The translations under genes were made by a program, and so were the position numbers. Of a DNA stretch of 41,823 nt, positions 17,828 to 31,201 are shown piece by piece (positions within the stretch are counted from its first letter, which is position 1; each line of letters opens with the position of its first letter). Source of the stretch: Elusimicrobiota bacterium (lineage in GTDB: Bacteria; CG03; SLGR01; JAFGSA01); NCBI GenBank assembly GCA_016934855.1, contig JAFGSA010000066.1, positions 1 through 41,823 on the forward strand, read 5' to 3'. Under the pieces are notes generated by a model that saw only the letters and a program-made list of their open reading frames with translations, had not been told where the DNA came from and did not search any database.

Positions 17828-17855
17828 AAGCAGCAAACAATACAGGAGGATGTGA

Positions 17856-18779
17856 ATGCTTAAAAAATATTTGTTAACTTTGGTTGTCCTGATTACTTCG
17901 ACTGGGGTGTGTTTTTCCGGCAAGGTTGGAAAGACAGGCTGGTCCGTATTCAGGAAGGCGCGGTCAGCGAAATTCAAGCCGATAACGGTAACGCCCGTAA
18001 TGGCGGTCCGAGGAGACCTCTCCGGGGCTTTCTATAATCCCGCGGTGCTCGCGATGAATATACGCAAGGAGATATTCTTCCTTTCCGAGCTCGGGATTAC
18101 CGATGATATGTTCGGAGGAGTAGTCTACGGACACCCGCTTAAGGATTCTGCCATAGCCGGCGGAATAATATATTACGATGCGGGAGAAATAGAGCTCAAC
18201 TGGCTTGATAGAGACGGGGATCTGCAGTCAGAGGAGGTCTCTGCCCAGAAGGACGTGCTCGGGCTTGTGTCCTACGGGCGCAAAGTAAGAGATAACATAT
18301 GTCTCGGCGGTACCGTAAAATTCGCGACCAGTAAACTCGTCGAAAGAGAATCGGCGAATGCCTATGCCTTCGACGTGGGCGCGCTGTACCTCCCGAAAAA
18401 ATACGAGAATTTGAGCCTTACCGGTTCACTCCAGAACCTGGGTATGTCTACAAAGTTCGTCGATAAAGCCAACCCGCTGCCCGTATCGGCATTTGTCGGG
18501 GCGGGGTACTGGTATGACCTGAGCAACGACTATTACCTGACGCCGGGATTCGATTTTACTTATCTCGTCGCTGAAGAGAGGGTCGTTCCCGAACTGGGTT
18601 TTGAGCTGGGCAGAGACCCGATGTCTATAAATTTCGGGTACCAGTTCACGTCTGAAGGAGCCTGGCATCTGGGCTTTACGCTCCTTAAGAACGATTACGA
18701 TATAGCGTATGCTTATCTGCCCGGTCTGAGACTGGAATCTACCCACAGGATAAGCGTAGGAGTAAGGTTCGGCAAGTAA
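17856..18779 (+). CDS. Outer-membrane beta-barrel protein, FadL/PorV-like, containing an NPA motif
   Basis: Signal peptide (MLKKYLLTLVVLITSTGVCFS), an N-terminal FYNPAVLA motif (FadL hatch NPA-like), alternating amphipathic strands, and an aromatic-rich C-terminus. Sits next to the CTD cargo gene. Confidence 0.5.
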   Translation: MLKKYLLTLVVLITSTGVCFSGKVGKTGWSVFRKARSAKFKPITVTPVMAVRGDLSGAFYNPAVLAMNIRKEIFFLSELGITDDMFGGVVYGHPLKDSAIAGGIIYYDAGEIELNWLDRDGDLQSEEVSAQKDVLGLVSYGRKVRDNICLGGTVKFATSKLVERESANAYAFDVGALYLPKKYENLSLTGSLQNLGMSTKFVDKANPLPVSAFVGAGYWYDLSNDYYLTPGFDFTYLVAEERVVPELGFELGRDPMSINFGYQFTSEGAWHLGFTLLKNDYDIAYAYLPGLRLESTHRISVGVRFGK

Positions 18780-18809
18780 TACTGACTGAAGACATATAAG
18801 AAAATAACC

Positions 18810-18859
18810 GGCGGTTAGTATCCGGACAAACCGGATGCTAACCGCCTTTCCTTTTAAAA
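18810..18859 (+). terminator. Rho-independent terminator after the outer-membrane protein gene
   Basis: A 16-bp stem (ggcggttagtatccgg / ccggatgctaaccgcc, one mismatch) with loop acaaa, followed by tttccttttaaaa. Confidence 0.7.
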
Positions 18860-18913
18860 CAGCCTTAAAATAATGCCGAGAGCATCCCGGGGTATTCCGG
18901 CGCGAGAGATGTT

Positions 18914-21073
18914 CTACTTTGTTTTCAGTTCCCAGACCCCGTTCCAGTCGTCGGCAGGCGGTTCGGATTTATACTTTTTGCATCTTGAGAGATAGGTGAC
19001 GGAAGGCCCGTCTTCTGGCAGGATTTTTAACGCTTCTTCGAAAAGCCTTATGCCTTCGTCCCATTTGCGGGTCTTGTAGCATTTCAATCCTTCACTGTAA
19101 AGGGCAAGGACTTTTTCCTTGTCGGGAGAAAGGCTGCCTTTTACGGCCATAACTTCATATACGTGAACGGGTTTCTTCTTGCCTTTCACCCGCAGAGCGT
19201 CAAGCTCCCGGAATTCGATATCGTTTTCCACCTGGGCCTTAGTGAACTCGCTCATCATTATACAGGTGCCGTATTCCTTGTTGGCAGATTCCAGCCGGGC
19301 GCCCAGGTTTACCGAATCTCCCATGACAGTGTAGTCCATCCTCGTCTTCGATCCCATGTTCCCGACTATCATCGGCCCGGTGTTTATCCCGATGCGCATG
19401 CTCAGCGGGGGACGGCCTTCTTCTTTCCATTTTACCTGCAACTGCCCGAGCTTTTTCTGGCAGTCCAGGGAAGCTTTGCAGCATCTCAGCGCGTGGTCAT
19501 GCTGGTCCACCGGAGCGTTCCAGAACGCCATTATGGCGTCGCCCTCATACTTGTCCAGCGTACCTTCGTAATCGAATATTATATGCGTCATGGCTTCCAG
19601 GTATTCGTTTATGAGATGGACAAGGTCTTCCGGCTCGAGCGATTCGGATATAGTAGTGAAGCCCGAAAGGTCAGAGAAATACACGGTCATCTCCCTGCGT
19701 TCGCCGCCGAGAGTCAGGGAAGAAGGGTCTTTCAGTATCTTGGTGACTACCGACGGCGTTATATACGTGGAGAACACGTTCTTTATCCATTTTTTCTCCT
19801 TCTCTTCGGTGGCGTACTTATAGAAGACCAGGAACAGGTCTGTGAGGAATATGACCATGAGGGGGTAGACTATTATGATGCTCAGGCCGTGCTTAATAAA
19901 CAGATAATAATTGACGACAAGGTATAGTATGAAGATCATGAATGTATAGATTATGCTCCTGACGGGAGTGAGCCTCGGCAGAAGAAAACCCATGAAGATC
20001 CCCAGGAATATCAATAAAAGGATATTCTGGGACCTTGTAGTGTGGCTGATGAAGCTGCCTGTCAGGATGTTGTCGAATACTGTGGCGTGAACTCCCACGA
20101 TGGGATCCACGTTTGAGAAAGGAGTGGGCCCGACATCAAAAGACCCTGTGGCTGCCATGCCTATAAAGACGACCTTATCCTTGAAATCCACAAGGTCTAT
20201 GACGGGTTTATCCCCTCTTTTTAACTGCTCGTATGCCTGTATAATATCGGAGTATGAATGACTCCTGAAGGACTGTATGGAGCCGCTGTAATTAGCGGTG
20301 ATCTGTATATAATCGTTGACCGGTATCTTTATCGGTTTCCTGGTCTGCCCGGGGAAATTGATTATTACATATTTTTCCGGGATCACTTCTATGTCTTCAA
20401 GCCGCGCGCCCAGGTAATCGCAGGCCATTTTGAACGAGATAAGCGGGTATATCCTGTGCATGTACCATATGAACAGTAGAGCTCTCCTGTAAACACCGTC
20501 TTCGTCGGGGGCGCCGTTCACAAAACCGGATCCTTTTACCACGCCGAGTATGCCTCCGAACGGCAGGGTGACATCGTAACATTCGAAATAGGTATCCGGG
20601 TCTTCGTTGGGAATACCGAAGCTGTGAAAGAGCGGATTGAGCGACTGCGGTTTTTCCGTCGCCATGGGGAAGTAAAAGGGGAAATATACGTTCCCGGCTC
20701 TCCGGGCGGAATCTATGAGTTTCTTGTCGTCCTGGGGGAACAGGTTATCGGGTTCGGGAAAAAGGACATCGAAAAATACCGCGTATGCGCCGTATTCGGA
20801 AAGTATGTCTATCAGCTTTGCATGTATATTCCTTCTCCAGGGCCATTTCCCGAATGCGCCGAGGCTCGCGTCGTCTATAGCGACGATCCTGATAGGTGAC
20901 TCCGCTTCCTTCTGCCCCCTGAACTTGAACCTGAGGTCATACAGGTTGAGTTCGACTCTTTCCAGTATATTATACTGGTAGAATATTATCAGCAAAACGG
21001 TTACAAGAAGGCTGATTATCACGCCGGGCAGAAACCTGCGGAGCGTATCGTGAGTCTTTTTCATGATTTGCAA
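18914..21073 (-). CDS. CHASE2-domain membrane adenylate/guanylate cyclase with a C-terminal TPR-like tail
   Basis: N-terminal CHASE2 (IVAIDDASLG..WPWRR), transmembrane helices, a class III cyclase domain (FSDLSGFT...GDAIMAFW...GINTGPMIVGNMGS), and a TPR-like C-terminus. Confidence 0.85.
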   Translation of the reverse strand: MQIMKKTHDTLRRFLPGVIISLLVTVLLIIFYQYNILERVELNLYDLRFKFRGQKEAESPIRIVAIDDASLGAFGKWPWRRNIHAKLIDILSEYGAYAVFFDVLFPEPDNLFPQDDKKLIDSARRAGNVYFPFYFPMATEKPQSLNPLFHSFGIPNEDPDTYFECYDVTLPFGGILGVVKGSGFVNGAPDEDGVYRRALLFIWYMHRIYPLISFKMACDYLGARLEDIEVIPEKYVIINFPGQTRKPIKIPVNDYIQITANYSGSIQSFRSHSYSDIIQAYEQLKRGDKPVIDLVDFKDKVVFIGMAATGSFDVGPTPFSNVDPIVGVHATVFDNILTGSFISHTTRSQNILLLIFLGIFMGFLLPRLTPVRSIIYTFMIFILYLVVNYYLFIKHGLSIIIVYPLMVIFLTDLFLVFYKYATEEKEKKWIKNVFSTYITPSVVTKILKDPSSLTLGGERREMTVYFSDLSGFTTISESLEPEDLVHLINEYLEAMTHIIFDYEGTLDKYEGDAIMAFWNAPVDQHDHALRCCKASLDCQKKLGQLQVKWKEEGRPPLSMRIGINTGPMIVGNMGSKTRMDYTVMGDSVNLGARLESANKEYGTCIMMSEFTKAQVENDIEFRELDALRVKGKKKPVHVYEVMAVKGSLSPDKEKVLALYSEGLKCYKTRKWDEGIRLFEEALKILPEDGPSVTYLSRCKKYKSEPPADDWNGVWELKTK

Positions 21074-21174
21074 TTATACATTACGCGTGTCTAAAAGGCA
21101 ATTTCGGGCAGCCTTTGCCAGGTTGATTTTGAAGAATTAAACTTATAGAATAAAAGCAAAATTATCTGCGTAAT

Positions 21175-22185
21175 ATGGAACATAAAAAAATAATTGTTAC
21201 GGGGGGATGCGGGTTTCTCGGCCAGCACCTGGTCAGGTGTATTGCGGAATTGTCCGGGGACATCGCCGTAGAAGTGCTCGACCTGAAGAGCGACCAAGGC
21301 GGGCCTGCCGATTGCGGCGGGTTTGCTAATATAACCGTATCGGTCGGAACGGATATCTGTGATTATGAATCCGTCAAGAGAAGATTCGCGGGTGCCGATA
21401 CCGTAATACATCTGGCAGGTCTCGTATCCTTTTCACTCAGAGCGAGAGAGGATCTTGAAAGGGTAAACGTGGCCGGAACAAGGAATGTCCTCGGGGCGGC
21501 GTATGAAAATAATGTGAAAAATTTTATCCACGTGAGTTCGGTAGCGGCGCTTGGTTATACCGATGACAGGGAACTTCCCGCAGACGAGGACTTCATCTTC
21601 GACTGGGATATAGCGCGCAGGAGAAACAAGTTTTATATGCTCACCAAGCATATGGCGGACGAAGCAGTAAAAGAATACAAGGAAAAGGGCATGAACTGCG
21701 TGATAGTCTACCCCGGACTCATGTTCGGGCCCGGGGACGTCACAAACTCGAAAAAGCTTATCTCGGCTATCAGGGCGTCCCGGATACCTTTCAATATGCC
21801 GGGGGGAACCAATATAGTGGACGTGCGGGACGTGGCGCGAGGGATAGCGGAGATATTGAAAAGAGATGTAAGAAACGGAGATTTTCTTCTGCCGGGGCAT
21901 AACCTCGAATTTGCCCGTATAAACAGTGTCATCGCCGAAGAGCTTTCGGTGAGACCTCCCGGGATCACGTTGCCGCGGGCGCTGAACGGGCTCATGTACG
22001 GACTGCTGCTTCTGGTAGAGATGATATCAGCCAAAAGTCCGGAACTCACTGCGGATAACGTCGATTCCGCATTCAAATTCAGGTATTTCAGCGGTGAAAA
22101 AGCCGAAAGGGAACTCGGGTGGCGGCCTGAATACGGGTTCCGGCAGACAATAAATGACACAATAAGATGGATGGACGGAAAATGA
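21175..22185 (+). CDS. NAD-dependent epimerase/dehydratase (3-beta-HSD family)
   Basis: IIVTGGCGFLGQHLV Rossmann motif and a YxxxK (YMLTK) motif. Confidence 0.8.
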   Translation: MEHKKIIVTGGCGFLGQHLVRCIAELSGDIAVEVLDLKSDQGGPADCGGFANITVSVGTDICDYESVKRRFAGADTVIHLAGLVSFSLRAREDLERVNVAGTRNVLGAAYENNVKNFIHVSSVAALGYTDDRELPADEDFIFDWDIARRRNKFYMLTKHMADEAVKEYKEKGMNCVIVYPGLMFGPGDVTNSKKLISAIRASRIPFNMPGGTNIVDVRDVARGIAEILKRDVRNGDFLLPGHNLEFARINSVIAEELSVRPPGITLPRALNGLMYGLLLLVEMISAKSPELTADNVDSAFKFRYFSGEKAERELGWRPEYGFRQTINDTIRWMDGK

Positions 22186-22961
22186 GCAGTTTGGAAGGTA
22201 AGGTAGTAATAATAACCGGCGCTTCCAGCGGTATCGGCCGCTCCGCGGCTTTAAAATTCGCGGAAGAAGGCGCGAAACTGGTCCTGGCCGCGCGCAGAGC
22301 CGGGAGGCTTGAGGAAATACGACAGCAAATTGCCGCATATAACGCCGAGTGCATAGCCGTTAAAGCCGACGTGTCGCGCGAAGAAGATGTGCGCAATCTG
22401 TTTGACGAAACAGAAAAGGTATTCGGCGCGCCGGATATACTGGTTAATAATGCGGGGAGGGGACTTAAGGCGGAGATCCGGGACATAGGGCTTGATGAGT
22501 GGATGTCCGTGCTGAACACTAACCTGACAGGAGTATTTCTCTGCACAAGGGAGTTCGTGAGGAGGAAGAAAGACAGCCCGTCAATAAAACGGATAATAAC
22601 GGTATCTTCTATAGCCGGCCTTTTCGGCGCCCCGACTTACGCGGCCTACTGCGCCTCAAAACACGCCGTGACGGGTTTTAACAGGTCTGCCAGATGGGAG
22701 CTTTCCCGAAAGGGGATTAAAGTTACGGTCATACACCCGGCGAGGGTAGATACCGAGTTCTTCGACAGCTATAAAAAAAGGCCCGGCAGGGCCCAGATGC
22801 TCTCTCCGTCTGACATCGCGGAACTTATAACTGCAATAGCATCTGGTTCCGCTGCCAGAGCCGTGCTGGTAAGAGGGCTTAATTTCTTTAAAAGGGTCTA
22901 TTATTTAGCGAGATATACGGTCATACCTCAAGGAGAAAAAAATGAAAAGAACATACCTTAG
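22182..22961 (+). CDS. SDR-family oxidoreductase
   Basis: TGASSGIGRS and YCASKHAV motifs. The ATG at 22182 overlaps the epimerase stop (ATGA); an alternative start is at 22167. Confidence 0.8.
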   Translation: MSSLEGKVVIITGASSGIGRSAALKFAEEGAKLVLAARRAGRLEEIRQQIAAYNAECIAVKADVSREEDVRNLFDETEKVFGAPDILVNNAGRGLKAEIRDIGLDEWMSVLNTNLTGVFLCTREFVRRKKDSPSIKRIITVSSIAGLFGAPTYAAYCASKHAVTGFNRSARWELSRKGIKVTVIHPARVDTEFFDSYKKRPGRAQMLSPSDIAELITAIASGSAARAVLVRGLNFFKRVYYLARYTVIPQGEKNEKNIP

Positions 22962-23412
22962 TAAAGAAGGCTATAAAAAACTCAAGGAAGAACTGAAATA
23001 TTTGAAGGAAGTGAAGAAGCCCGAGATATCCAAAAGGATCGGCGTAGCCAGGGAGCACGGCGATCTGAGGGAAAACGCGGAATACGATACGGCCAAAGAA
23101 GCGCTTGCCCAGGTCATGATAAAGATAAGGGACATCTCCATGAAGCTCAGCACTGCAGAGATAATAGAGAACACGGACATAGCTTCTGATAAAGTCTATA
23201 TAGGGGCATCCGTGCACTTGGTAGACCAGAAGAGCAAAGAAGAGCTCAAGTATATCCTCGTGAGCCCAGATGAAGTCGACGTGCTCGAAGACAAGATATC
23301 GGTAGATTCACCCATAGCCAAGGGGCTGTTGGGCCACAAGGTCGGAGATACGGTAGAGATCAGGATACCTGCGGGTACCGTAAAATACAGGATAACGAAA
23401 ATAGAAAGATAA
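22942..23412 (+). CDS. greA: Transcription elongation factor GreA
   Basis: 157 aa, with N-terminal coiled-coil residues and the GDLRENAEYD motif. Confidence 0.9.
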   Translation: MKRTYLSKEGYKKLKEELKYLKEVKKPEISKRIGVAREHGDLRENAEYDTAKEALAQVMIKIRDISMKLSTAEIIENTDIASDKVYIGASVHLVDQKSKEELKYILVSPDEVDVLEDKISVDSPIAKGLLGHKVGDTVEIRIPAGTVKYRITKIER

Positions 23413-23417
23413 ACGCC

Positions 23418-23780
23418 ATGAACGGAAAAATACTTGTTGTAGATGATGATGCGGCTCTTAACGAGCTTATAAGGGACACCCTGGAGTTCGCAGGTTACGC
23501 TACTGTGCCTGTTTTTGACGGCGACAGGGTTATAGACGCCGCGGTATCGGAGAAACCCGACCTTATCCTCCTGGACCTGACACTGCCGAACGTCAGGGGG
23601 GAAGACCTGTACCGGCGCATCAGGCAGATGCCTGAAATAAGCGGGATACCGGTTCTTCTTATGACGGCCAATATCCCCCGGGAGCTCCTGGAGTCAGGTA
23701 TCAGGAAGGAGGATGTTGTTTCCAAGCCGATAGATTTCAAGGCGCTCAAAGCAAGGATATCGAAGCTTGTTTCCTTGTAA
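23418..23780 (+). CDS. Single-domain response regulator (REC only)
   Basis: ILVVDDD...DLILLDLTLP...K; 120 aa with no output domain. Confidence 0.8.
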   Translation: MNGKILVVDDDAALNELIRDTLEFAGYATVPVFDGDRVIDAAVSEKPDLILLDLTLPNVRGEDLYRRIRQMPEISGIPVLLMTANIPRELLESGIRKEDVVSKPIDFKALKARISKLVSL

Positions 23781-23819
23781 TAAAAAGGCAAATTATATAT
23801 ATTAATATCCAGTATAAGT

Positions 23820-23897
23820 CGGGGTGTGGCTCAGTTTGGCTAGAGCACTCGGTTCGGGACCGAGAGGCCGTCGGTTCAAATCCGACCACCCCGACCA
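23820..23897 (+). tRNA. tRNA-Pro (anticodon CGG), with encoded CCA
   Basis: Acceptor CGGGGTG/CACCCCG, D arm GCTC-AGTTTGGCTA-GAGC, anticodon stem CTCGG/CCGAG with loop TTCGGGA, T arm GTCGG-TTCAAAT-CCGAC. Confidence 0.85.
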
Positions 23898-23928
23898 TGC
23901 TGTCTGATTGAAACGACGGCCAAAAAGG

Positions 23929-23952
23929 TCCGGAAAAAGTTATTTTTCCGGA
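23929..23952 (+). terminator. Perfect 10-bp hairpin (tccggaaaaa-gtta-tttttccgga) downstream of tRNA-Pro(CGG). Probable terminator or processing signal
   Basis: An exact inverted repeat whose 3' arm supplies the U-run. Confidence 0.5.
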
Positions 23953-23958
23953 TATATG

Positions 23959-24086
23959 CGGGGTGACAGCGACCCCGATGTTTTGTTTTGCAGAGCAAGA
24001 ATATCGGGGGAAGCGCAAGAGGGGCGGTCGAGCCCCTATTGGGAGCGGGAGCGACGCCGTGGGTTCAAATCCGACCACCCCTACCA
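23959..24086 (+). repeat. A ~128-nt unit that begins with the tRNA-Pro 5' acceptor heptamer (cggggtg) and ends with a 26-nt copy of the tRNA-Pro(CGG) 3' end (gggttcaaatccgaccacccctacca, one mismatch). It is a degenerate repeat unit, not a functional tRNA
   Basis: 24061-24086 matches 23872-23897 at 25 of 26 positions. The interior has no D or anticodon arms. It contains a diverged U-like segment (gagcgggagcga). Confidence 0.55.
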
Positions 24087-24183
24087 TGAACCACGGGGGG
24101 GCATGGTATGCCAGGTTCATGAGTAAATATATAAAAGAGGATTTGAAAGGAAATCATCGCTCACAGTGTGAGATGAGGCCGTA

Positions 24184-24262
24184 GGCCGGAAGAGGATTTC
24201 CCCGACTTCGAGTGAGCGGGAGGATAGGAAGTGAATGAGAAGAAATCCGACCACCCCGACCA
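24184..24262 (+). repeat. Repeat unit D: U block (~24184-24248) fused to a 20-nt exact copy of the tRNA-Pro(CGG) 3' end (aaatccgaccaccccgacca, 24243-24262)
   Basis: ggccggaagaggatttccccgacttcgagtgagcgggagg aligns to ggccggaaggttatttccccggctccgagagagcaggag of unit B. Its 3' end merges with the T-loop/acceptor copy. Confidence 0.55.
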
Positions 24263-24486
24263 GCCTCCGTTCCGCTTGAGACATACGATCGGAGGCTGTC
24301 GCGACGCATTTTGCGGCTGCAAACGAAATCGGTCATCCGGGAGTGATAAACTACAGCTAGACAGGTCAGGGGGTGATTTTTAAAACTCTGGCCGAAAAGT
24401 CATTGTAAAATATACAAAATATGAACGTTACGGCGGAGAATCCGGTATTAAAGGAAAAGTTTTATATCATATGCTGAACGCTAAAT

Positions 24487-25098
24487 ATGATAATAAATTC
24501 ATCGCAGGCAACCTATTATGATAAATATAATTCAAAAAATCTTGCCGAGAAGCATATAATGCGGAAATTATTAAAGAATATAAAGAAATTTCTTGGACGC
24601 ATCAATCCCAAAAACATTCTGGAAGTTGGATGCGGCGAAGGATTTGTGAGTAAGTATATGTATGATTTTTATTCCGGTCGCGCCGAAGTTCACGGCATAG
24701 ATATTTCAGAAGAGATTATTGGCGATGCGCGGAAAAACTATTCCGATATTAAATTTTCAGTCCAGTCCGCGTATTCATTGGATATCGAAAACAACCATTA
24801 CGATCTTGTAGCGGCATTTGAGACGCAGGAGCAACTGGAAGATCCTGGGAAGGCTCATCGGGAGATGAAAAGGGTATGTAAACGCTGTTTTATCTTTACG
24901 GTTCCGCAAGAACCTGTATGGCGATTATTAAATATATTGCGTTTAAAATATGTCTGTTCACTCGGTAATACGCCTGGACATATACAGCATTGGAACCGGA
25001 AAACCTTTCTGAATATGCTTTCATGTACTATGCGTCCCATAGAGATCATGACACCGATACCTTTTATGCAGGTATTCTGCGAAGGATATTCAAAATGA
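24487..25098 (+). CDS. Class I SAM-dependent methyltransferase
   Basis: Motif I LEVGCGEG. The stop overlaps the GT2 start (ATGA). Confidence 0.75.
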   Translation: MIINSSQATYYDKYNSKNLAEKHIMRKLLKNIKKFLGRINPKNILEVGCGEGFVSKYMYDFYSGRAEVHGIDISEEIIGDARKNYSDIKFSVQSAYSLDIENNHYDLVAAFETQEQLEDPGKAHREMKRVCKRCFIFTVPQEPVWRLLNILRLKYVCSLGNTPGHIQHWNRKTFLNMLSCTMRPIEIMTPIPFMQVFCEGYSK

Positions 25099-26042
25099 AA
25101 CTGGTAGTTCAGATCCCCTGTTTTAACGAAGAAGAAACACTGCAGGAAACAGTAGACGGAATTCCTGAGCGGTTTCCCGGAATAGATGACATTGAGATAA
25201 TTGTTATCGATGACGGGTCGACTGACAATACTGTAGAAACTGCAGAAAGAATAGCGCGCGTTACGGATGTGGTGCGTTTGCCGGTTCACCGGGGACTTGC
25301 TTCCGCCTTCATGGCAGGTATCCATAGGAGTCTTGCCAGGGGTGCGGATGTCATCGTCAATACGGATGCGGACAACCAGTATTGCGGTGAGGATATCGCC
25401 AAGCTGATAAAGCCTATACTGGACGGAAAGACGAACGTGGTGATAGGCAACAGGCAGGTACATGATATCAGGCATTTCTCCTTTATTAAAAAAATCCTGC
25501 AGAAATTAGGATCTAAAACTGTGAATATTCTTGCAAAAAGGGAGATATCAGATGTGACATCGGGTTTCCGCGCATTTTCCAGGGAGAGCGCGACCAGGCT
25601 GAGGGTATTTTCAACATACAGTTACACTCTCGAGACGATACTGCAGCTGTCAAGCATGAAGTTCGATATTGTCTCCGTCAACATCAGGACAAATCCGAAG
25701 CTGAGAAAATCACGTCTGATGAGAAGTATGCCGGAATACGTCTGGAGATCCATGCTTACGATAATAAAATTATTTTACATATATAATCCGTTCAAATTGT
25801 TTTTTTCTTTAAGCATGATATTCGGCATCCCGGGAATCACTCTTGTTGCCCGATTCTTTTTTCTATATTTTAAAATAAAAGGGCAGACAGGGCATGTGCA
25901 GTCCCTGATCATCGGGTTGACGCTTTGCGGGGCATCCGGTATAATGCTTTTAATAGGCGCGGTTGCCCAGCTGATAACCACCAACAGGAAAATCCTAGAA
26001 GATATTGATTATACGATAAAGACAATCCAATATAATAAATAG
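25095..26042 (+). CDS. GT2 polyprenyl-phosphate glycosyltransferase (GtrB/ArnC/DPM1-like) with two C-terminal transmembrane helices
   Basis: QIPCFNEE, VIDDGSTDNT and a TDADNQY (DxD) motif, plus two C-terminal transmembrane helices. The start is assigned to the ATG at 25095 (MKLVVQIP). Confidence 0.85.
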   Translation: MKLVVQIPCFNEEETLQETVDGIPERFPGIDDIEIIVIDDGSTDNTVETAERIARVTDVVRLPVHRGLASAFMAGIHRSLARGADVIVNTDADNQYCGEDIAKLIKPILDGKTNVVIGNRQVHDIRHFSFIKKILQKLGSKTVNILAKREISDVTSGFRAFSRESATRLRVFSTYSYTLETILQLSSMKFDIVSVNIRTNPKLRKSRLMRSMPEYVWRSMLTIIKLFYIYNPFKLFFSLSMIFGIPGITLVARFFFLYFKIKGQTGHVQSLIIGLTLCGASGIMLLIGAVAQLITTNRKILEDIDYTIKTIQYNK

Positions 26043-26073
26043 ATACAAAGCAGACGGCAGTTCACTCGATACA

Positions 26074-26712
26074 ATGGAAAATAGATCGAATAAAGAGATG
26101 AAAGAAAAAAATAGTAAGGTAGGACAGAGGGAGGGTGTGCTTTCTCCGCTGCTGGGCCGAATAAGGCTAAAAAAAATATCACAAAAAATAGTCCCTGACA
26201 GTTCCGTCCTGGATGTGGGCTGCGGTATTCTCTGCAGGCCCGGACTTATACAACGGAAGATAGATTATTCAGGGATAGATATCGACGAAAGAACGATAAG
26301 AGCCAATATATCGCTTTTCCCGGATGGTAGATTCTACTGTGTGGACATAGAAAAAGAGGATGTTCCTGAAACAGGCAAGAAGTACGATTTTATAATCATG
26401 GCCGCAGTGATAGAGCATGTTAATAATCCCGTCAAAGTGATGACGAAGATCGGGGGGCTGCTGAAACCGCAGGGCAGAATACTCCTTACAACGCCCGCAC
26501 CGCTGGGCGAGATAATATTGAAAATGGGCGCCTGCCTGGGTATATTCAGCAGGGAAGCCGAAAAACAGCATAATGCTCTGCTGGGAAAGAGAGATTTGTC
26601 GCGCCTGGCGGAATGCTGCGGTTTGGAATTGGAATACTACGAAAGGTTTCTTTTCGGCATGAATCAGTTTGTGGTATTCAGAATCAGGCAGGATACGGCC
26701 GCGGGCGAATAG
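26074..26712 (+). CDS. Class I SAM-dependent methyltransferase
   Basis: VLDVGCG motif I, acidic motif II, and 212 aa. Confidence 0.7.
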   Translation: MENRSNKEMKEKNSKVGQREGVLSPLLGRIRLKKISQKIVPDSSVLDVGCGILCRPGLIQRKIDYSGIDIDERTIRANISLFPDGRFYCVDIEKEDVPETGKKYDFIIMAAVIEHVNNPVKVMTKIGGLLKPQGRILLTTPAPLGEIILKMGACLGIFSREAEKQHNALLGKRDLSRLAECCGLELEYYERFLFGMNQFVVFRIRQDTAAGE

Positions 26713-26727
26713 ACAGCAGATATAATT

Positions 26728-27300
26728 ATGGCAGAATTAGAGTCACGAACAGTGAATAACGAATCATCGCGGACCCCGATGAGTAAGTTTTATAATGTTT
26801 TATGGTGGATTATAATTTTATTATCGTTGTATCTTGTAAAAGCAAATATTGAAACATCGTGGCGTTATTTCAGCAGGCAGAGATCGAGGTCTGATGGTAT
26901 GGATATTCTTTACCAGAGGGCGGGTGGCAAGGGCAGCCTGGGGGTATTTATCGAAGAATGCAGTATTAGGAATATGGGTAATCTGTATTATCCCGAAGAA
27001 CCAAAAACGGTTTACATGGGAAATCTGGGAATAAACCTGCTGGAAATGAGGATGTTGCCCGGTAAGTGTATAAAGGGTATGTATGAAGATAATATAACCG
27101 GCGAAGAAGTGAAATACCTCAGGAATATAAGCCTGAATCACAAGACAAGCGCATGCAGATCGGGAAATGCCGTATTATATTACGCTGATTATGATAAACC
27201 AAAAACCGGGAAAAGCGATTATATCGTGCTGGAGGCGCAAGATATTAGTGACGAATTGATATTCGTAGTGCCCCGGGACTGGAGAAAGGGACTGCAGTAA
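26728..27300 (+). CDS. Hypothetical membrane-anchored protein (190 aa)
   Basis: A single N-terminal transmembrane helix (FYNVLWWIIILLSLYLV) with no recognisable domain. The gene is tightly packed within the operon. Confidence 0.5.
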   Translation: MAELESRTVNNESSRTPMSKFYNVLWWIIILLSLYLVKANIETSWRYFSRQRSRSDGMDILYQRAGGKGSLGVFIEECSIRNMGNLYYPEEPKTVYMGNLGINLLEMRMLPGKCIKGMYEDNITGEEVKYLRNISLNHKTSACRSGNAVLYYADYDKPKTGKSDYIVLEAQDISDELIFVVPRDWRKGLQ

Positions 27301-27302
27301 AA

Positions 27303-28808
27303 ATGACCGGGCAAGTCCTGTATCTGAGTATAATATTCCTGACCGGTATATTGTTTACCGCGTTATTGAAGCCGTTTTTCCCGGACAGCCGGGTTATATG
27401 GCTGCTAGGGTTTCCTGCCGGAATGTTTATATGGGTTTTTTCCACCGTAATAATGATCATTATCTCCGTTCCCGTAAAACTGCCGTGCCTGTTCATACTC
27501 ATAGGAATCCTGTTTTCCGGGATGATGTTCTATTCTTACAGGAAAGAGCATCACGTCATTGGGTCAGTGAAAAAGCAGGATATATCGGCTGTTGCGATTC
27601 TGGCTGTCGTATTTTTGCTGTTGTCTGTCATATGCAGCCGATATAATTATATACATATGACAAATGATTCCTTTTATCATGAAGCGATGGGAAGGATGAT
27701 AGCCCGATACAGTAAAATCAACGGCGATTATATCGTCTATTTTACGCAGACAAGGCTGATATTCCTGTCTTCTCTTCATGGGATAGGCTATCTGTTCGGG
27801 GTCAGGATGGTGAACGCTATATATCCGGTAACCGGCATCTGGTTCGTCATTCTATTTGTAGCTTTCTGCCGGGAAGGCATGAAGGATATCTATATAGGGC
27901 CTGTTAAAAGGTCTTTGATATTAACAGCAGCCGGATCGTTCCTGGCGTCTTTTCCCTTGTATATTATGCACACCACATATCTATTGACTAACCTCATGAC
28001 ATCGATGTATTTCAGCATAGCACTGATAAGTTATTTTCTCAGTAAGAATGAGAATAAGGGATGGATGATAATATCGGCATTCTCTCTTGGCGCAACCGTG
28101 CTGATAAGGAAAGACATGGCTTTTGCCAATATCATCCCTTTGATACTCTTCACGAGCTGTAAGGACGACCGGATAAAAGAGAAATTCCCGTTGTGGCAGT
28201 ATCTTGTCATATATGTATCAATTGCCTATATATGGTCGTTCTACGGCCTGCTTATTTCCGGAGGCGATCTTCTGATAAACCAGCAGTTCGGATTTCCTTT
28301 CTATATCCTGTGCTTTATGTTTTCCATAGCGTGTGTCATGATTTTCGGATATACGAGACCTTTTAAATATATGAAACGCTGGCTGCCTGCAATCTGCATT
28401 TTATCATTGGCTATGGTGTTGCTGATAGCCGTGTTATTCTGTCCGGAGAAGATAATTTATTATTACAGGGTATTAATAAGCTATCTGGCCACAGGAAGGA
28501 TGTCGACTAAAGGTTCTATCGGTGTCCTTTTGTGTTTTATCATGATTATTTATACGGTGAGGAGAACGGCAGACATGTGGAAATACTTATTTGTCATAAC
28601 AGGTTTTCTCTTGATATGGTTTATCATCAACGGCGTATATCTGATGCCGGTAACAGTGAGTAAGTTCAAATATCACTGGAATTTTTCCGCGAGCAGGATA
28701 CTCCTGCATATCTTTCCGTTCATCCTTTACAGTTATGCGGTCTTCCTGGGTTCTCTGGGAAAAAAGGCATTGCCGCTGCCCGCGGAAAGCGTCGGACGTG
28801 CCGACTGA
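27303..28808 (+). CDS. Polytopic membrane protein of 501 aa with ~12 transmembrane helices. Possibly a GT-C-fold glycosyltransferase that uses the polyprenyl-P-sugar made by the upstream GT2
   Basis: Hydrophobicity pattern. The first loop has NDSFYHEAMGR (an acidic motif as in ArnT/PMT-type GT-C). The functional call comes from context only. Confidence 0.55.
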   Translation: MTGQVLYLSIIFLTGILFTALLKPFFPDSRVIWLLGFPAGMFIWVFSTVIMIIISVPVKLPCLFILIGILFSGMMFYSYRKEHHVIGSVKKQDISAVAILAVVFLLLSVICSRYNYIHMTNDSFYHEAMGRMIARYSKINGDYIVYFTQTRLIFLSSLHGIGYLFGVRMVNAIYPVTGIWFVILFVAFCREGMKDIYIGPVKRSLILTAAGSFLASFPLYIMHTTYLLTNLMTSMYFSIALISYFLSKNENKGWMIISAFSLGATVLIRKDMAFANIIPLILFTSCKDDRIKEKFPLWQYLVIYVSIAYIWSFYGLLISGGDLLINQQFGFPFYILCFMFSIACVMIFGYTRPFKYMKRWLPAICILSLAMVLLIAVLFCPEKIIYYYRVLISYLATGRMSTKGSIGVLLCFIMIIYTVRRTADMWKYLFVITGFLLIWFIINGVYLMPVTVSKFKYHWNFSASRILLHIFPFILYSYAVFLGSLGKKALPLPAESVGRAD

Positions 28809-28918
28809 GGTATGCAATTTATCACAAAAAAAAGGTATATTGCGGAGATTTTCCCGGTCAGAAACTTAGAAAAAAGTGACTAAAACCGCAAGGGTTTCCT
28901 TAAAGGATCCTGATATAA

Positions 28919-31201
28919 TTACTCTGTTTGCGAGGGATGGCTGTTTTTTCGCCTGTTAATGCCGTTCACCGGATTTTCTATAGACGCGAATATCCTGTAA
29001 AGCGCGCTGCTCTTGGCGCTCGTAAGTATCCTGTGCCTGTTGGATTTGTCCGCAAGGAACTTCGAGATTTCGGCTATATATTGAAGATAAGACTCATTGC
29101 CTTCGGTGGGGATCAGGGTGAGTATGAATATCCTGGAAGGCTTCTTGTCGAGCGCATTGAACTCCACGCCGTCTCTGCTCACTCCGACGGCCGATATCAG
29201 GTGCCGTATACCCGCGGACCGCGCATGCGGTAAAGCTATTCCGTACTGCATCCCTGTCGACATCGACTTTTCCCGTTCGAAGACGGCGCTGACAGTATTT
29301 TCCTTTTCCTCCGGGGCCAGATAGCCGGCTTTGACTATGGTTTCTATGAGTTCGGAAATAATATCCCGTGGGCTTTTCCCTTTGAGCCAGGAAGTGACGG
29401 TTCCAGGCCTTATTATATTTCTTATGTGCATGCGCCTGGTTCCCCCGGGGACGGCGGACTTGAGTATCTGCATGCCTATGGCGTCCCTGTCTATACTGGT
29501 CTGAAGAGACCTGACGGTGTATTCCAGGTCGGCTATTATCTCGTAGAACAGCGTATGCACGAAAGCCTCGTCGGGCCTCCTGCATTCGAATATAAGTTCC
29601 GACGGGTCATACTGCAGAGTAAGTGAAGTGTCTTCCTTGCGTATCTGAAAAAGGGTGTAGGGGATCTCCATGCGATATACATAAAATCCCTCGTCTTCAA
29701 ATGCACTGATGACCCTGCTGAGCACCATCTCGGCGGTCTGCTGGTTCGGCATGGGATAGCGTATCTTCGCGTGCTCGACCGGCGACTGCGCCTCTTTTTT
29801 CAGTATGGGTTTTTCACTGGTAATCATTCTCGAAAGGAGTCCCGGAGTGATAAGGGTGGTTAAAAATACCATAGTGACAGTGACGCTGAATATCTCATGC
29901 GGTATGATCCCCTGCGAAAGGCCTATCCCCGCGATTATCAGGGCTACCTCGCTCCTGGGGACCATGCCTATTCCCACCGTAGCCGCTCCGTGCAGACTGA
30001 AATTTAAAAGATACGCAGGCAGACCGCAGCCCAGGTATTTGCTTGCAAAGGCCACAACGAAATAGGCTGCGCCGAAAATAAGAGTATTCCATCCGGCCAT
30101 CTCCCTGAAATTCACGAACATCCCCATGGTGCAGAAGAATACCGGAACCAGGAAACGCTGGAGTACCGATATGTTTTCGCGTATCATGAAAGAGAGATCG
30201 GATTTCGACAGGCTGAGCCCCATGACATACGCGCCGATTATCATGGCAAGCCCCGACTTTTCGAATATTCCCGAAAGCAGCAGTGCAAAAGAGAAACTCA
30301 TTATTGATATTGTCACCTTGTCGCGGAACTTCTTAAGGAAGCGCTCGATATGCCTGTAAAATATAACGCCGGCCACGGTAAAACCCAGCCATATGCCGAC
30401 GGCTTTAGCCGAGATGGCTGCCACCTGGCCCCACATAACATGGCCGCTCTTGATGATGCCTATTACCACGGCAAGAGCTATTATCCCAAGAACATCGTCA
30501 ATTACGGCGGCTGAGATGATGGTTATGCCTTCGGGGGAATCCATCTTCCTCTTTTCGGAGAGGATCCTCGCGCTAATTCCAACGGAGGTAGCGGTGGTTA
30601 TTATGCCCAGAAACATAGGCACGGGGTGCAGGAATCCGTAGAATTTCCCGAAAACGGTCCGGGAAAAAAGCATTCCTGTTATATCGCCGAAAATAAAACT
30701 GAAAATGACGCCCGATATGCCTACCATGGTCGATACGAATGAAAAAGACAGGAATGTATCGATATTCGTTTCGATGCCGGCGATGAAAAGGAGTATTATG
30801 GCTGCGAGTGTCGTTATGCTGTACAGTTCCCTGGATACCGGGAGCCCGTCGCTGATGGGGAAGAACCCGCCGGGGAAGCCCGGCAGAGGAATACTGCCTA
30901 AAAGATACGGCCCCAGTATTATGCCCGCGAATATTTCGCCGAGCACTCCGGGCATTTTCATGCGCTCGAAGAGACGGCCGCTGGCCCAGGCGGCGAGAAC
31001 CATAACCCCGAGCTGCATGACCATCTGGGCTATCCCTGAGTTGAGATTATCTGCGCCGCCGTTTTCGGCGGCAGAAACTGATCGTAATGCGAGCAGTAAG
31101 AAGGCGGGCAGTATCGCGTAGCGGAGCCAGCCGCGAAATTCGCCTGGACTTGTTCTGCCGGTTTCAGCCGATATGGTTTTATGTGTATATCCCAAAATCA
31201 T
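28919..31201 (-). CDS. CPA2-family cation:proton antiporter fused to a C-terminal PTS EIIA type-2 (PtsN-like) domain
   Basis: MKMPGVLGEIFAGIILGPYLLG is an NhaP/Kef-type N-terminus with ~12 transmembrane helices. The C-terminus has GIALPHAR (the EIIA-2 His motif). The start is uncertain: the ATG at 31201 is preferred (AGGTAG upstream), but the ORF is open to 31273. Confidence 0.75.
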   Translation of the reverse strand: MILGYTHKTISAETGRTSPGEFRGWLRYAILPAFLLLALRSVSAAENGGADNLNSGIAQMVMQLGVMVLAAWASGRLFERMKMPGVLGEIFAGIILGPYLLGSIPLPGFPGGFFPISDGLPVSRELYSITTLAAIILLFIAGIETNIDTFLSFSFVSTMVGISGVIFSFIFGDITGMLFSRTVFGKFYGFLHPVPMFLGIITTATSVGISARILSEKRKMDSPEGITIISAAVIDDVLGIIALAVVIGIIKSGHVMWGQVAAISAKAVGIWLGFTVAGVIFYRHIERFLKKFRDKVTISIMSFSFALLLSGIFEKSGLAMIIGAYVMGLSLSKSDLSFMIRENISVLQRFLVPVFFCTMGMFVNFREMAGWNTLIFGAAYFVVAFASKYLGCGLPAYLLNFSLHGAATVGIGMVPRSEVALIIAGIGLSQGIIPHEIFSVTVTMVFLTTLITPGLLSRMITSEKPILKKEAQSPVEHAKIRYPMPNQQTAEMVLSRVISAFEDEGFYVYRMEIPYTLFQIRKEDTSLTLQYDPSELIFECRRPDEAFVHTLFYEIIADLEYTVRSLQTSIDRDAIGMQILKSAVPGGTRRMHIRNIIRPGTVTSWLKGKSPRDIISELIETIVKAGYLAPEEKENTVSAVFEREKSMSTGMQYGIALPHARSAGIRHLISAVGVSRDGVEFNALDKKPSRIFILTLIPTEGNESYLQYIAEISKFLADKSNRHRILTSAKSSALYRIFASIENPVNGINRRKNSHPSQTE

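Follow-up and report, generated by a model that had tools for sequence, protein, structure and literature searches.

The tRNA-linked repeats (TLRs) of Escherichia coli were sequenced in 1978 (Egan & Landy 1978 and Rudd 1999, as cited in PMC8144298) and still have no known function or origin (PMC8144298). [quoted passage not shown] The 178-bp repeats of the tyrT locus correspond to the rtT RNA (rttR), described in Rfam as the RtT family, RF00391 (PMC8144298). In our E. coli controls, four RtT units were recovered at tyrT with scores of 133-137 bits, the last 19 nt of each repeating tRNA-Tyr from A58 to A76, and the 3' identity was 19/19 at tyrT and 18 nt at rrnB. What defines a TLR is its arrangement rather than a match to any single model, since the rrnB TLR of E. 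coli is itself missed by RtT at E <= 0.01. The RtT consensus comprises a closing helix pairing the 5' segment GGGAAGGAU with the tRNA-derived AUCCUUCCC, an inner stem around two hairpins, and a purine-rich strand, with CCACCA left unpaired as the tail.

The window analysed here, a contig of 41,823 nucleotides from an Elusimicrobiota bacterium, carries a comparable arrangement. A preliminary description had not recognised in it the layout of the tRNA-linked repeats described from E. coli (PMC8144298). The window sequence is not an artefact of its own assembly, since independently assembled Logan contigs of SRR13394437 are 100% identical to it over 18368-23893 and 23895-31343.

Repeated tRNA 3' ends and the U-unit family

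The intact tRNA-Pro(CGG), whose CCA is encoded, occupies positions 23820-23897 of the + strand (ARAGORN; Rfam tRNA, 67.5 bits). As reported in the preliminary description, its 3' end is repeated twice downstream on the same strand, at 24053-24088 and 24243-24262, and the start-to-start spacings of 189 and 176 nt bear out the units of ~175-190 bp proposed there. The first extra end closes what we call unit 1 and spans 36 nt with 3 mismatches (92% identity to 23864-23899), which include a G72 to T change and one in the T-stem; it reaches into the variable loop and extends 2 nt beyond the CCA. It had been described as a copy at 24061-24086 with a single mismatch: the 3'-end copy is real, but comparison with 23872-23897 gives 2 mismatches out of 26, a stretch of 25 nt with 1 mismatch being obtained from 24062. 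The second extra end is, as described, an exact 20-mer at 24243-24262 and corresponds to tRNA positions 57-76. Searching with this Pro 20-mer and up to 3 mismatches returned tRNA ends only, for 0.00 chance matches expected. Right after the last CCA, a strong hairpin formed by CAGCCTCCGTTC and GATCGGAGGCTG was identified at 24261-24298 (+ strand) from an inverted repeat and from folding.

The structured core of the second unit, ProU2, was delimited at 24134-24256 (+ strand) using alignment A3 and its consensus fold. Its homology to the units behind tRNA-Gly is longer than was first claimed, 24132-24257 matching 13784-13909 over 126 nt at 71% identity. At that locus, tRNA-Gly(CCC) at 13692-13766 (+ strand; ARAGORN, Rfam) is followed on the same strand by GlyU1 at 13767-13943 and GlyU2 at 13944-14122, the end of the latter, formerly set at 14120, being moved to include its terminal GCTACA. 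In GlyU1 the tRNA-Gly copy runs over 13896-13908, is interrupted by a 29-nt hairpin insertion (13909-13937) and resumes as GCTCCA (13938-13943); the copy in GlyU2 is interrupted in the same manner. The presence of this insertion in the tRNA copies of both units suggests that they arose by tandem duplication in place rather than by separate insertions. A hairpin inside both Gly copies would be awkward if an intact 3' end were needed as a processing signal. The fourth unit, at 1-85 (+ strand), is cut by the contig end and was recognised from a unique 19-mer and from a covariance model match over 1-79 (model positions 45-122, E 0.004). It carries 19 nt of a tRNA end, and its 3' terminus, AATCCTGCCGGGCGTACCA, is that of a tRNA absent from the window, probably Arg-like judging by the acceptor sequence.

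ProU2, GlyU1, GlyU2 and the truncated unit at the window start form one family of tRNA-linked repeats. The covariance model, built from the units themselves, gives 127-140 bits on each full copy (127 for ProU2, 140 for GlyU1 and 128 for GlyU2). One conserved block is joined to three tRNA 3' ends, as initially noticed, namely Gly, Pro and the Arg-like one whose gene lies off the contig, with 1-2 copies per locus at three loci in 41.8 kb. A U unit was also found behind tRNA-Gly in the related lineage L062 (an Elusimicrobia metagenome contig), with L071 from a second sample. Units start at the base following a CCA, either that of the tRNA (tRNA-Gly, 13767; tRNA-Gly of L062, 9607) or that of the preceding unit (13944 and 24087), and all U units lie on the tRNA strand, directly behind the tRNA gene or the preceding unit. 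Identity to the tRNA begins at position 57/58 in 5 out of 5 copies. The 3' copy matches the upstream tRNA at 20/20 positions in ProU2 and in L062; in GlyU1 and GlyU2 it consists of 13 nt and 6 nt split by the 29-nt insertion. Unit lengths range from 141 to 180 nt and comprise a structured module of ~120 nt and an A/T-rich linker of 15-50 nt.

Searching Rfam at E <= 10 over 23700-24500, 13680-14300 and positions 9500-9920 of L062 detected no ribozyme, riboswitch or small RNA family beyond noise, and a promoter scan found no promoter-like site inside the units. A promoter of their own is disfavoured because only 0-3 nt separate the TATAAA-like A/T-rich stretch from the closing helix, and a start there would delete the 5' strand of this helix. 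An 88-aa minus-strand ORF (13846-14112) had only two low-complexity matches among 1.84 billion proteins.

Unit 1 (23898-24086) is a tRNA-Pro trailer with terminator-like hairpins, followed by the degenerate 36-nt tRNA 3' copy. As a diverged U unit it was rejected, the U covariance model having no real match in 23880-24130 with filters off. At 23908-23921 (+ strand) the trailer segment TTGAAACGACGGCC forms with GGCCGTCGGTTCAA of the adjoining tRNA (23866-23879, covering the variable loop together with the 5' T-stem and the 5' half of the tRNA-Pro T-loop) an inverted repeat of 14 nt, 93% complementary, with arms 28 nt apart; reverse-complemented unit 1 scores above 300 out of 300 shuffles against the tRNA-Pro 3' end. 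A perfect 10-bp terminator-like hairpin, TCCGGAAAAA/TTTTTCCGGA, lies at 23929-23952 (+ strand; terminator scan and inverted-repeat search), and BLAST of unit 1 found a resembling one behind tRNA-Pro(GGG) in the relative L063 (7448-7484). A further terminator-like hairpin, CGGGGT-GACAGCG-ACCCCG followed by ATGTTTTGTTTT, was picked up by the terminator scan at 23959-23990 (+ strand). Unit 1 had been thought to begin with the heptamer CGGGGTG, identical to the 5' end of tRNA-Pro, and to form a tRNA-like shell of 128 nt. The heptamer, which occurs 9 times in the window for 4.2 expected, is actually situated at 23959-23965, 61 nt inside unit 1, and is the 5' arm of the latter hairpin, after which comes a T-rich run; the shell thus rests on a 7-mer belonging to a terminator-like hairpin. 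As in tmRNA and tRNA-like RNAs, the heptamer and the T-arm/acceptor/CCA copy can close a 128-nt shell, a pairing used in the predicted minimum-energy fold of unit 1, but in contrast to tmRNA both the T-stem and the 1:72 pair are broken in the 3' copy. A tmRNA or tRNA-like gene was not retained as a candidate for unit 1: ARAGORN detected none, and the Rfam tmRNA score was 10.5 bits against a threshold of 47. Finally, TGAACCACGG at 24087-24096 (+ strand), read from the sequence, is complementary to the variant T-arm CCGTGGGTTCA of the first copy and compensates its C-to-G change (GTGGG/CCAC here versus GTCGG/CGAC in the tRNA).

Predicted fold and covariation of the U units

A consensus fold was calculated from alignment A3, made of 4 full copies from 2 lineages (3 in the window and 1 in L062), and predicts five helices common to all 4 copies: S1, S2, P0, P1 and P2. 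In the predicted closing helix S1, a segment near the 5' end that complements the T-loop and the 3' T-stem pairs with the tRNA-derived segment, corresponding to 24138-24144 (AGGATTT) with 24243-24249 (AAATCCG) in ProU2, 13790-13796 with 13895-13901 in GlyU1 and 13970-13976 with 14074-14080 in GlyU2. By tRNA, S1 reads GGGGATC/ATCCCC for Gly in the window, GGGAATC/GATTCCC for Gly in L062 and GGATTT/AAATCC for Pro. The inner stem S2 would enclose the hairpins P0 and P1 and be followed by the purine-rich P2 region, and the acceptor strand and CCA of the copy would be left as a free single-stranded tail of 12-13 nt. In ProU2, the copy at 24243-24262 would provide both the 3' strand of S1 and this unpaired tail.

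The 31 consensus pairs are 96% paired across the 4 copies and 17 of them have changed on both sides; in S2, compensatory changes affect 6 out of 8 pairs. For 4 of the 5 fold measures none of 500 shuffles reached the observed value, the shuffles ignoring the relatedness of the copies, and sliding the 3' partner by 1-3 columns brought the number of compensatory pairs down to 1-3. Because S2 joins the tRNA-proximal and distal halves with compensatory changes, we consider the unit to be complete as it is. In the strand test, the consensus helices contain 2 G-U pairs versus 2 C-A mismatches, which favour neither strand. The 5' complement matches the real upstream tRNA over 9-10 bp, versus 6-7 bp for the downstream copy of its own unit; in view of this longer match the closing helix could form with the upstream copy, the covariation being compatible with either. 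Between GlyU1 and GlyU2, P2 is 89% identical and the 5' halves just 54%, the 5' half of GlyU1 being closer to ProU2 (73%) and that of GlyU2 to L062 (70%).

Distribution and possible origins

Relatives were fetched via the flanking proteins. The L062 unit is ~76% identical to GlyU2 over 117 nt, for GreA and MerR proteins that are just 67-71% identical. Matching loci without units were found in 3 out of 4 related lineages (L063, L072 and L073-78); L064 (only tRNA-Pro(TGG) and tRNA-His) and L069 (no tRNA) are without these loci, and L067 and L068 end before them. Since the unit is present in L062 and absent at the equivalent loci of three relatives, it is not a fixed, universal structure. The preliminary description had set its own reading against copies fixed in all relatives, and occupancy was found to differ among them. 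The Gly units sit between co-oriented tRNA-Gly and tRNA-Pro(GGG) genes, which in unit-less relatives are 17-62 nt apart, and a simple terminator scan of the + strand from tRNA-Gly to tRNA-Pro(GGG) flagged nothing. Judged by eye, the other tRNA spacers inspected in these lineages display no similarity. Assemblies break at unit loci, and the window itself begins inside a unit. The patchy occurrence among relatives and the association with three tRNAs would fit a mobile element too.

U-block patterns demanding exact letters at 18-22 positions, with which diverged copies would be missed, gave 58 matches in the genome contig collection and 2 in metagenome contigs, collections in which the source genome is evidently not represented. 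All were discarded as chance matches, the former lying mostly in GC-rich unrelated genomes with no BLAST similarity and the latter in coding-like sequence without tRNAs. Two such scans of viral contigs gave 0 matches, and when phage and plasmid records were queried with the units by BLAST, nothing relevant was retrieved. A MITE or IS-derived miniature transposon was also rejected, the sole end-to-end inverted repeat being S1, which changes with the tRNA, and no short flanking duplication being found.

The explanation that we favour, and hold to be probable, is that the U units are TLR-type structured modules behind tRNAs, with 3' copies tracking the tRNA and duplicated in place, unit 1 being separate. 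The module, located in the tRNA trailer or in the spacer ahead of the next tRNA, would be transcribed within the tRNA precursor, in favour of which speak its location between co-oriented tRNAs and the terminator scan that flagged nothing there. Its copied 3' end, which a helix would hold as it does the genuine one, would enable the tRNA 3'-end processing enzymes to excise the module and release a separate RNA whose end resembles that of a tRNA, as proposed for the E. coli TLR/RtT. Arrays would grow by local tandem duplication or by unequal crossing-over where the ends are repeated, sequence would be exchanged among units of different tRNA loci, and the 3' copy and its complement would follow the resident tRNA. 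A wider reading, to which we give a slim chance, is that TLR-type modules represent an ancient cross-phylum RNA class or a repeated invention, with ends re-templated on whichever tRNA precedes them, functioning as a T-arm switch or as a self-propagating element templated by tRNA 3' ends. A module acting as a switch would alternate between clamping the T-arm of the upstream tRNA, which its 5' complement matches over 9-14 bp, and folding on itself, and would be a cis-acting controller of tRNA maturation with the purine-rich core as a sensor or protein-binding part.

These modules have to be weighed against a non-autonomous integrative element of ~140-180 nt moved in trans by a site-specific recombinase crossing over at T-loop position 57/58, which we regard as unlikely. 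The order of such an element would be tRNA copy, 5' half and 3' half, its integration would regenerate the tRNA and displace the old 3' end, and its fold would be a recognition structure in single-stranded DNA or RNA. Elements of the T-loop class that integrate into tRNA genes classically leave an identity of 19-20 nt beginning in the T-loop (PMC1762012, PMC4383910), and one family occurs at three tRNAs with matched ends. Unit presence also varies at equivalent loci among relatives, assemblies break at these loci, and in L062 the tRNA end and 59 nt of trailer are repeated exactly on either side of a 63-nt core, as if a circle carrying both had recombined in. However, while a direct repeat of the tRNA 3' end does bound the DNA, a Pfam scan of ORFs together with precomputed Pfam tags of the remaining genes found no tyrosine or serine recombinase, integrase, transposase or reverse transcriptase in the 41.8 kb. 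Nor did viral contigs or the records of phages and plasmids yield a match to the units. Circles of 141-177 bp, if double-stranded, are moreover unfavourable substrates, base-pair covariation would not be expected at integrase arm sites, and the insertion common to GlyU1 and GlyU2 reflects a tandem duplication and not two integrations. For the E. coli analogues, no movement has ever been demonstrated (PMC8144298). The preliminary description had argued for active or formerly active targeting elements or templated copying and had suggested looking for an integrase or recombinase; activity, targeting and a copying mechanism are conjectural, and Pfam identified neither type of gene within the window.

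Templated copying would imply that a reverse transcriptase or a stalled polymerase copied the tRNA 3' end as far as the T-loop and linked this copy with the module, in which case the tRNA pieces in direct and inverted orientation would be footprints of copying; we consider this very improbable. The 57/58 boundary adjoins A58, where retroviral reverse transcriptases stop on tRNA primers if it is methylated (PMC8599865), but the boundary includes A58, and only 18 nt would be expected if copying had stopped at the methylated base. Each tRNA copy is trailed by part of its own T-arm in inverted orientation, with matching variants at the Pro locus, and reverse-complemented GlyU1 P2 resembles the tRNA-Gly 3' end (score 28 versus a shuffle mean of 17.8, p about 0.013). 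That p value fails correction for 24 comparisons, and the inverted tRNA-Gly copy inside P2, suggestive and non-significant after these tests, was not retained. The window harbours no reverse transcriptase gene, and the CCA is no evidence of an RNA origin because it is encoded in the tRNA genes here. A last alternative, for which we see next to no likelihood, is that the units are the ends of larger islands or prophages at tRNAs, later deleted down. Direct repeats of tRNA 3' ends are the usual marks of islands (PMC4383910), unit 1 could be an island remnant in view of its 36-nt copy and its unique interior, and an 8.6-kb gene block behind tRNA-Pro(GGG) here is missing in compact relatives; no second tRNA-Pro(GGG) end, however, was found at the far side of this block. 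The U units are equal in size and content at three loci and in two lineages, and their paired halves (S2, 6 out of 8 pairs compensatory) imply that nothing is missing from the middle, so that for them this reading is effectively refuted. A single decayed island was already judged insufficient in the preliminary description, and we concur, the block being joined to three tRNA ends and S2 pairing the halves of the unit.

Comparison with known systems

On sequence grounds, the U units share the three TLR features of position and strand, 3' identity and a family spread over several loci. The RtT model (gathering threshold 45 bits) had no match at E <= 10 on 23700-24500, 13680-14300 and 9500-9920 of L062; being blind to the U units, it leads us to file them as a new variant and not as RtT members. 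Conversely, the U model gave 4-8 bits (E 0.1-0.8) on the E. coli tyrT units, and 3 of its 6 best matches in E. coli, including all the full-span ones, fell exactly on three of the four tyrT units. Neither model detects the other family, and convergence is possible as well as common descent.

The U units would represent a second TLR-like family in a distant phylum, with the same layout and undetectable by sequence. The comparison indicates which features may be constrained, namely the A57/58 boundary, a closing helix covarying with the tRNA, two hairpins in the inner stem, a purine-rich arm and a free CCA tail, and offers a comparative handle on the old question of TLR function and origin. Because the units mimic island attachment sites or pseudo-tRNAs, they can mislead island finders and tRNA annotation, and here they coincide with assembly breakpoints.

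With the attL/attR sites of T-loop integrators (mycobacteriophage Ms6; Islander), the U units have in common a direct repeat of the tRNA 3' end from the T-loop, an intact tRNA upstream with a displaced copy downstream, and an occupancy varying between relatives. They differ in having no cargo and, in the window, no integrase, in that the 'element' of 120-180 nt is itself one base-paired structure, and in that tandem copies share an insertion, implying duplication in place. Like 3'ETS-leuZ of E. coli, one of the small RNAs derived from spacers and trailers of tRNA operons (PMC8144298), they would be non-tRNA segments co-transcribed with tRNAs and freed by processing, whereas the 3'ETS-leuZ has no tRNA 3'-end copy, is unrepeated and base-pairs with small RNAs (PMC8144298).

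The U units and the E. coli TLRs are found in different phyla (Elusimicrobia versus Enterobacterales) and behind different tRNAs (Gly, Pro and Arg-like versus Tyr and others). In the U units, 29 nt are inserted in the Gly copies, a purine-rich part longer than that of RtT forms its own stem P2, and the tail measures 12-13 nt versus 9 nt. Both families directly follow a tRNA gene, share its strand and lie within an operon, as single or tandem units of similar length (141-180 nt versus 178 nt at tyrT). Both end in a tRNA copy from about A58 to the CCA (19-20 nt versus 19 nt at tyrT), and each joins one family to different tRNA ends at different loci. An A/T-rich linker precedes the closing helix in both, the junction GAGU followed by A58 is common to RtT, GlyU1 and GlyU2, and the fold topology is equal to that of RtT, with a closing helix, two hairpins enclosed by an inner stem, a strand rich in purines and a CCA tail.

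The repeated tRNA ends and the fold of the U unit

Three tRNA genes, all on the + strand, were identified in the window by ARAGORN and Rfam: tRNA-Gly(CCC) (13692-13766), tRNA-Pro(GGG) (14220-14296) and tRNA-Pro(CGG) (23820-23897). As the preliminary description had stated, two extra copies of the tRNA-Pro(CGG) 3' end lie downstream of the intact gene, also on the + strand. Copy 1 spans 36 nt with 3 mismatches (24053-24088), and the 26-nt stretch previously given 1 mismatch has 2; copy 2 is an exact 20-nt repeat (24243-24262). The start-to-start spacings of these 3' ends are 189 and 176 nt. Searching for the 20-mer with up to 3 mismatches returned tRNA ends only, for a chance expectation of 0.00. 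The proposed homology of the second Pro unit (ProU2) to the block at the Gly locus was recovered over 126 nt at 71% identity with GlyU1, the first of the two units behind tRNA-Gly(CCC). ProU2 is also homologous to the second, GlyU2, and to the truncated unit that opens the window; the latter terminates in AATCCTGCCGGGCGTACCA, the last bases of a tRNA located off the contig.

The evidence for this U family consists of four full copies from two lineages, gathered in alignment A3: GlyU1 (13787-13908), GlyU2 (13967-14087), ProU2 (24134-24256) and the unit of the related lineage L062 (9619-9741). RNAalifold predicted 31 pairs organised in five helices (six under the helix-splitting used for covariation testing), with 96% of the alignment cells paired and two-sided changes in 17 pairs among the 4 copies. 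On four of five measures none of 500 shuffles reached the observed value, and sliding the 3' partners by 1-3 columns as a control lowered the number of pairs with two-sided changes to 1-3. The fold comprises a closing helix (S1) whose 3' strand is the tRNA-derived segment, an inner stem (S2) enclosing two small hairpins (P0 and P1), and a purine-rich arm (P2). In S2, 6 of the 8 pairs are compensated, for instance GGGAAAT/ATTTCCC versus GCCTTAC/GATAAGGC versus CTTTAC/GTTAAG, and P1 reads GGCC-GGA-GGCC, GCAC-GGA-GTGC, GAGC-GGA-GCTC and GGCC-GTA-GGCC in the four copies. The 5' strand of S1 follows the tRNA (GGGGATC/ATCCCC for the tRNA-Gly of the window, GGGAATC/GATTCCC for that of L062, GGATTT/AAATCC for tRNA-Pro). 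Since it changes to match the tRNA-derived 3' strand, the tRNA copy is a working part of the fold and not a scar beside it. Identity to the tRNA starts at T-loop position 57/58 in every copy and, beyond S1, the copied acceptor strand and CCA form a free tail of 12-13 nt. S2 joins the tRNA-proximal half with the distal half; the U unit is therefore complete and cannot represent the joined ends of an island whose middle was deleted, in agreement with the earlier view that simple decay of one island does not explain it.

The 5' complement in S1 fits the upstream copy better than the downstream one. In GlyU1, GGGGATCGAA is perfectly complementary to TTCGATCCCC, which lies 36 nt upstream in the real tRNA-Gly; GGGAATCGAA of L062 is likewise perfectly complementary to its own upstream tRNA, and GGATTTGAA of ProU2 is complementary to TTCAAATCC in the copy before it. 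Within the unit itself, the 5' complement forms only 6-7 bp with the 3' copy, because TTCR lies outside that copy. Covariation cannot tell the two S1 pairings apart, because neighbouring copies have identical sequence. The covariance model of the U unit scored the four full copies at 127-140 bits and the truncated copy at E 0.004. It found no further U units in the rest of the window or in ~200 kb of related loci, and no Rfam family matched the U units. The reverse complement of P2 in GlyU1 (13850-13893) reads GTTCGCTCCCC-TT-TCTCCTGCTC, to be compared with GTTCGATCCCC-G-TCTCCCGCTC in tRNA-Gly (shuffle p ~0.013, not significant after 24 tests); this likeness may hint at a module built from inverted tRNA sequence.

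Unit 1 behind tRNA-Pro(CGG)

Unit 1 (23898-24086, + strand) lies between tRNA-Pro(CGG) and ProU2. Its first element is a tRNA complement. Two hairpins come next: one is perfect and 10 bp long (23929-23952), the other is terminator-like and has a T-rich run (23959-23990). About 60 nt of unique sequence then lead to the 36-nt tRNA copy, whose T-stem and 1:72 pair are both disrupted. The complement following the tRNA is 14 nt long and covers its variable loop and T-arm, so that the theme of the U units' 5' complement recurs here outside that family. Behind copy 1, which is degenerate, stands TGAACCACGG, which compensates the C-to-G change of that copy. Unit 1 folds with z = -5.0, its minimum-energy fold pairing with the 3' copy the heptamer from which a 'tRNA-like shell' had been proposed. 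That heptamer proved to be part of the terminator-like hairpin, where it forms one arm; as a 7-mer it is frequent in the window, found 9 times for 4.2 expected. Unit 1 was not recognised as a U-family member by the covariance model with filters off, and ARAGORN and Rfam turned it down as a tmRNA or tRNA-like gene. It may represent a second kind of tRNA-linked repeat, or else an island remnant.

Distribution among relatives and exchange between loci

Four related lineages were reached via flanking proteins (GreA or MerR identity of 65-72%). In L062/L070 (JGI sample 3300033153), one U unit with an exact 20-nt copy stands behind tRNA-Gly, followed by a second, exact repeat of both the tRNA end and the unit's first 59 nt, and then by a T-run; no unit was found behind tRNA-Pro(CGG). 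L071 is a second sample of this lineage. Units are absent from both the Gly and Pro(CGG) loci of L063, L072 and L073-78, where 17-62 nt separate tRNA-Gly from tRNA-Pro(GGG). All 35 tRNAs in the loci examined were scanned for a further copy of their last 16 nt; within 400 nt downstream, such copies occurred in the window and the L062 lineage alone. The remaining matches were those among the paralogous tRNA-Pro genes and, in an unrelated genome, one with 2 mismatches located 1,058 nt downstream. The L062 unit is ~76% identical to GlyU2 over 117 nt, with flanking proteins at only ~70%, and the other tRNA spacers read in these lineages showed no similarity, by eye and not by formal alignment. Such conservation would fit selection on the unit, or a transfer later than the lineage split.

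The units are mosaics. Over the 5' 72 columns, GlyU1 and ProU2 share 73% identity and GlyU2 and L062 70%, GlyU1 and GlyU2 only 54%; in the P2 region the latter two reach 89%. They also have in common a 29-nt GC-rich hairpin (CCTGCACC...GCAGG; 13909-13937 and 14088-14116) inserted in the copied acceptor strand, which splits the tRNA copy into 13 nt + 6 nt. This insertion being incompatible with a working tRNA, both Gly units derive from a local duplication. The 5' half of one of them was later swapped with the Pro-locus type, or the reverse. The mosaic 5' halves thus indicate sequence exchange between U units at different tRNA loci.

Independently assembled Logan contigs of run SRR13394437 were 100% identical over both flanks and both Pro-locus units. 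Assembly breakpoints fall at U loci (window 1, 23893/23895, the ends of L071 (3410) and L061): the window's contig starts within a U unit, the L071 contig terminates inside one, and Logan contigs end at the tRNA-Pro 3' end and within tRNA-Gly. These coincident breaks could come from repeats or from strain variation in unit number.

Other features were observed in the tRNA flanks. In L062, every CCA is followed by an A-rich linker (CAGAAAAAATAAAAAA) that is complementary to the T-run preceding tRNA-Pro(GGG) (TTTTTTAATTTTTGTG) (9605-9620, 9746-9761, 9807-9822), so that the second, partial unit is bracketed as in a two-way terminator. A second conserved module, V, follows the last tRNA copy at two loci (86-176 and 14123-14219) and consists of GAGTTAGTGAAAGGTTGAAGGT, then a hairpin GTGG(G/A)AAGTG ... 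CACTTTCCA(C/T). At the window start, 35 nt comprising the last 13 nt of the tRNA copy and 22 nt of V are duplicated (73-107 and 197-231, 124 nt apart, 94% identity), the second occurrence lying in the stretch 197-239. Upstream of the first gene (361-391 and ~447-471) lies a long hairpin made of TAAG-rich inverted repeats (AAGCTATAAGTTGTAAGCTGTAAGC ... GCTTACAGCTTACA...). The same AGCTGTAAGCTGTAAGC motif fills the tRNA-Gly/tRNA-Pro spacer of L063 (7262-7300); these sequences may belong to a further family of small repeats that flank tRNAs in this clade. L073-78 are packed as MerR, tRNA-Gly, 17 nt, tRNA-Pro(GGG), 9 nt, GreA, 3 nt, tRNA-Pro(CGG). In the window, an 8.6-kb block (14297-22941) separates tRNA-Pro(GGG) from greA, its place being taken by 100 nt in L062 and by a different 2.5-kb block in L063. 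It encodes a response-regulator/GAF histidine kinase, two ORFs without Pfam hits, a CHASE2 guanylate cyclase, an epimerase and a short-chain dehydrogenase, and no second tRNA-Pro(GGG) end bounding it was found. One ORF without a Pfam match (16331-17827, 498 aa) carries three tandem repeats of ~147-153 nt (17060-17383, 79-82% identity) and encodes an internally repetitive protein, its family unassigned by Pfam.

Origin of the units and comparison with E. coli tRNA-linked repeats

Position, strand and fold, covariation with tRNA identity, a constant boundary, tandem duplication, inter-locus exchange and patchy occurrence are the established features of the U units. A unit may have arrived behind a new tRNA, with matched 3' copy and 5' complement, by T-loop recombination followed by conversion and compensation, by a recombinase, or by a copying mechanism. 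The preliminary description saw in the units a family of tiny elements targeting tRNA 3' ends, or a templated mechanism copying such ends. The window, a contig of 41,823 bp from a metagenome-assembled Elusimicrobia bacterium (GreA and MerR are 100% matches to records of that name), holds ordinary chromosomal genes (among them HflX, Der, PlsY, GpsA, HU, MerR, GreA, response regulators, methyltransferases and a GH3 glycosidase), and a Pfam scan of its ORFs together with precomputed Pfam tags detected no integrase, transposase or reverse transcriptase domain. Mobility is a live option that we regard as improbable. As transcribed modules, U units would be synthesised together with their tRNA and could be freed by the enzymes that process tRNA 3' ends, since the copy offers them the same end in a helical context; the 5' end of the released RNA might arise by cleavage in the A/U-rich linker.

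We compared this arrangement with the E. coli K-12 tyrT locus. K-12 contains 22 tRNA-linked repeats (TLRs), which are located in tRNA or rRNA operons at ten loci with 1-5 copies each. As a hallmark, their last 18-19 bp repeat exactly the 3' end of the gene immediately upstream (Stenum et al., PMC8144298). TLRs have no known function, an early rtT claim having been retracted; one processing RNase was suggested to recognise both the repeat and the real 3' end, and three rRNA-linked TLRs bind Hfq and CsrA in vitro (PMC8144298). A covarying tandem G-A motif is present in RtT (PMC7657543), and the tyrT/rttR region gives a raised 'mobilome'-preparation signal under stress, with unknown mode of action (bioRxiv 10.1101/2024.07.17.603846).

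Downstream of tyrT and tyrV, the units correspond to Rfam RtT (RF00391; four matches, 133-137 bits). Each terminates in AATCCTTCCCCCACCACCA, that is A58-A76 of tRNA-Tyr, and their period after tyrV is 178 nt. The RtT consensus has a closing helix made of a 5' GGGAAGGAU and a tRNA-derived AUCCUUCCC, an inner stem with two hairpins, a purine-rich strand and a free CCACCA tail, a topology identical to that of U units. The junction GAGU followed by A58 recurs as well (in GlyU1 and GlyU2), as do the A/T-rich linker that precedes the closing helix and the GAA behind that helix's 5' strand, and U units agree with TLRs in all organisational criteria. The RtT model gave no match to U units at E <= 10, and the U covariance model scored only 4-8 bits on the E. 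coli units; three of its six best matches in E. coli, the sole full-span ones, fell exactly on three of the four RtT units. The RtT model also misses the E. coli rrnB TLR (E <= 0.01), whose 18-nt repeat of the 5S end we confirmed; the TLR class is therefore defined by arrangement and by no single model. U units are thus a variant of the TLR arrangement beyond the reach of the RtT model, their likeness to the E. coli TLRs being due either to common descent or to convergence.
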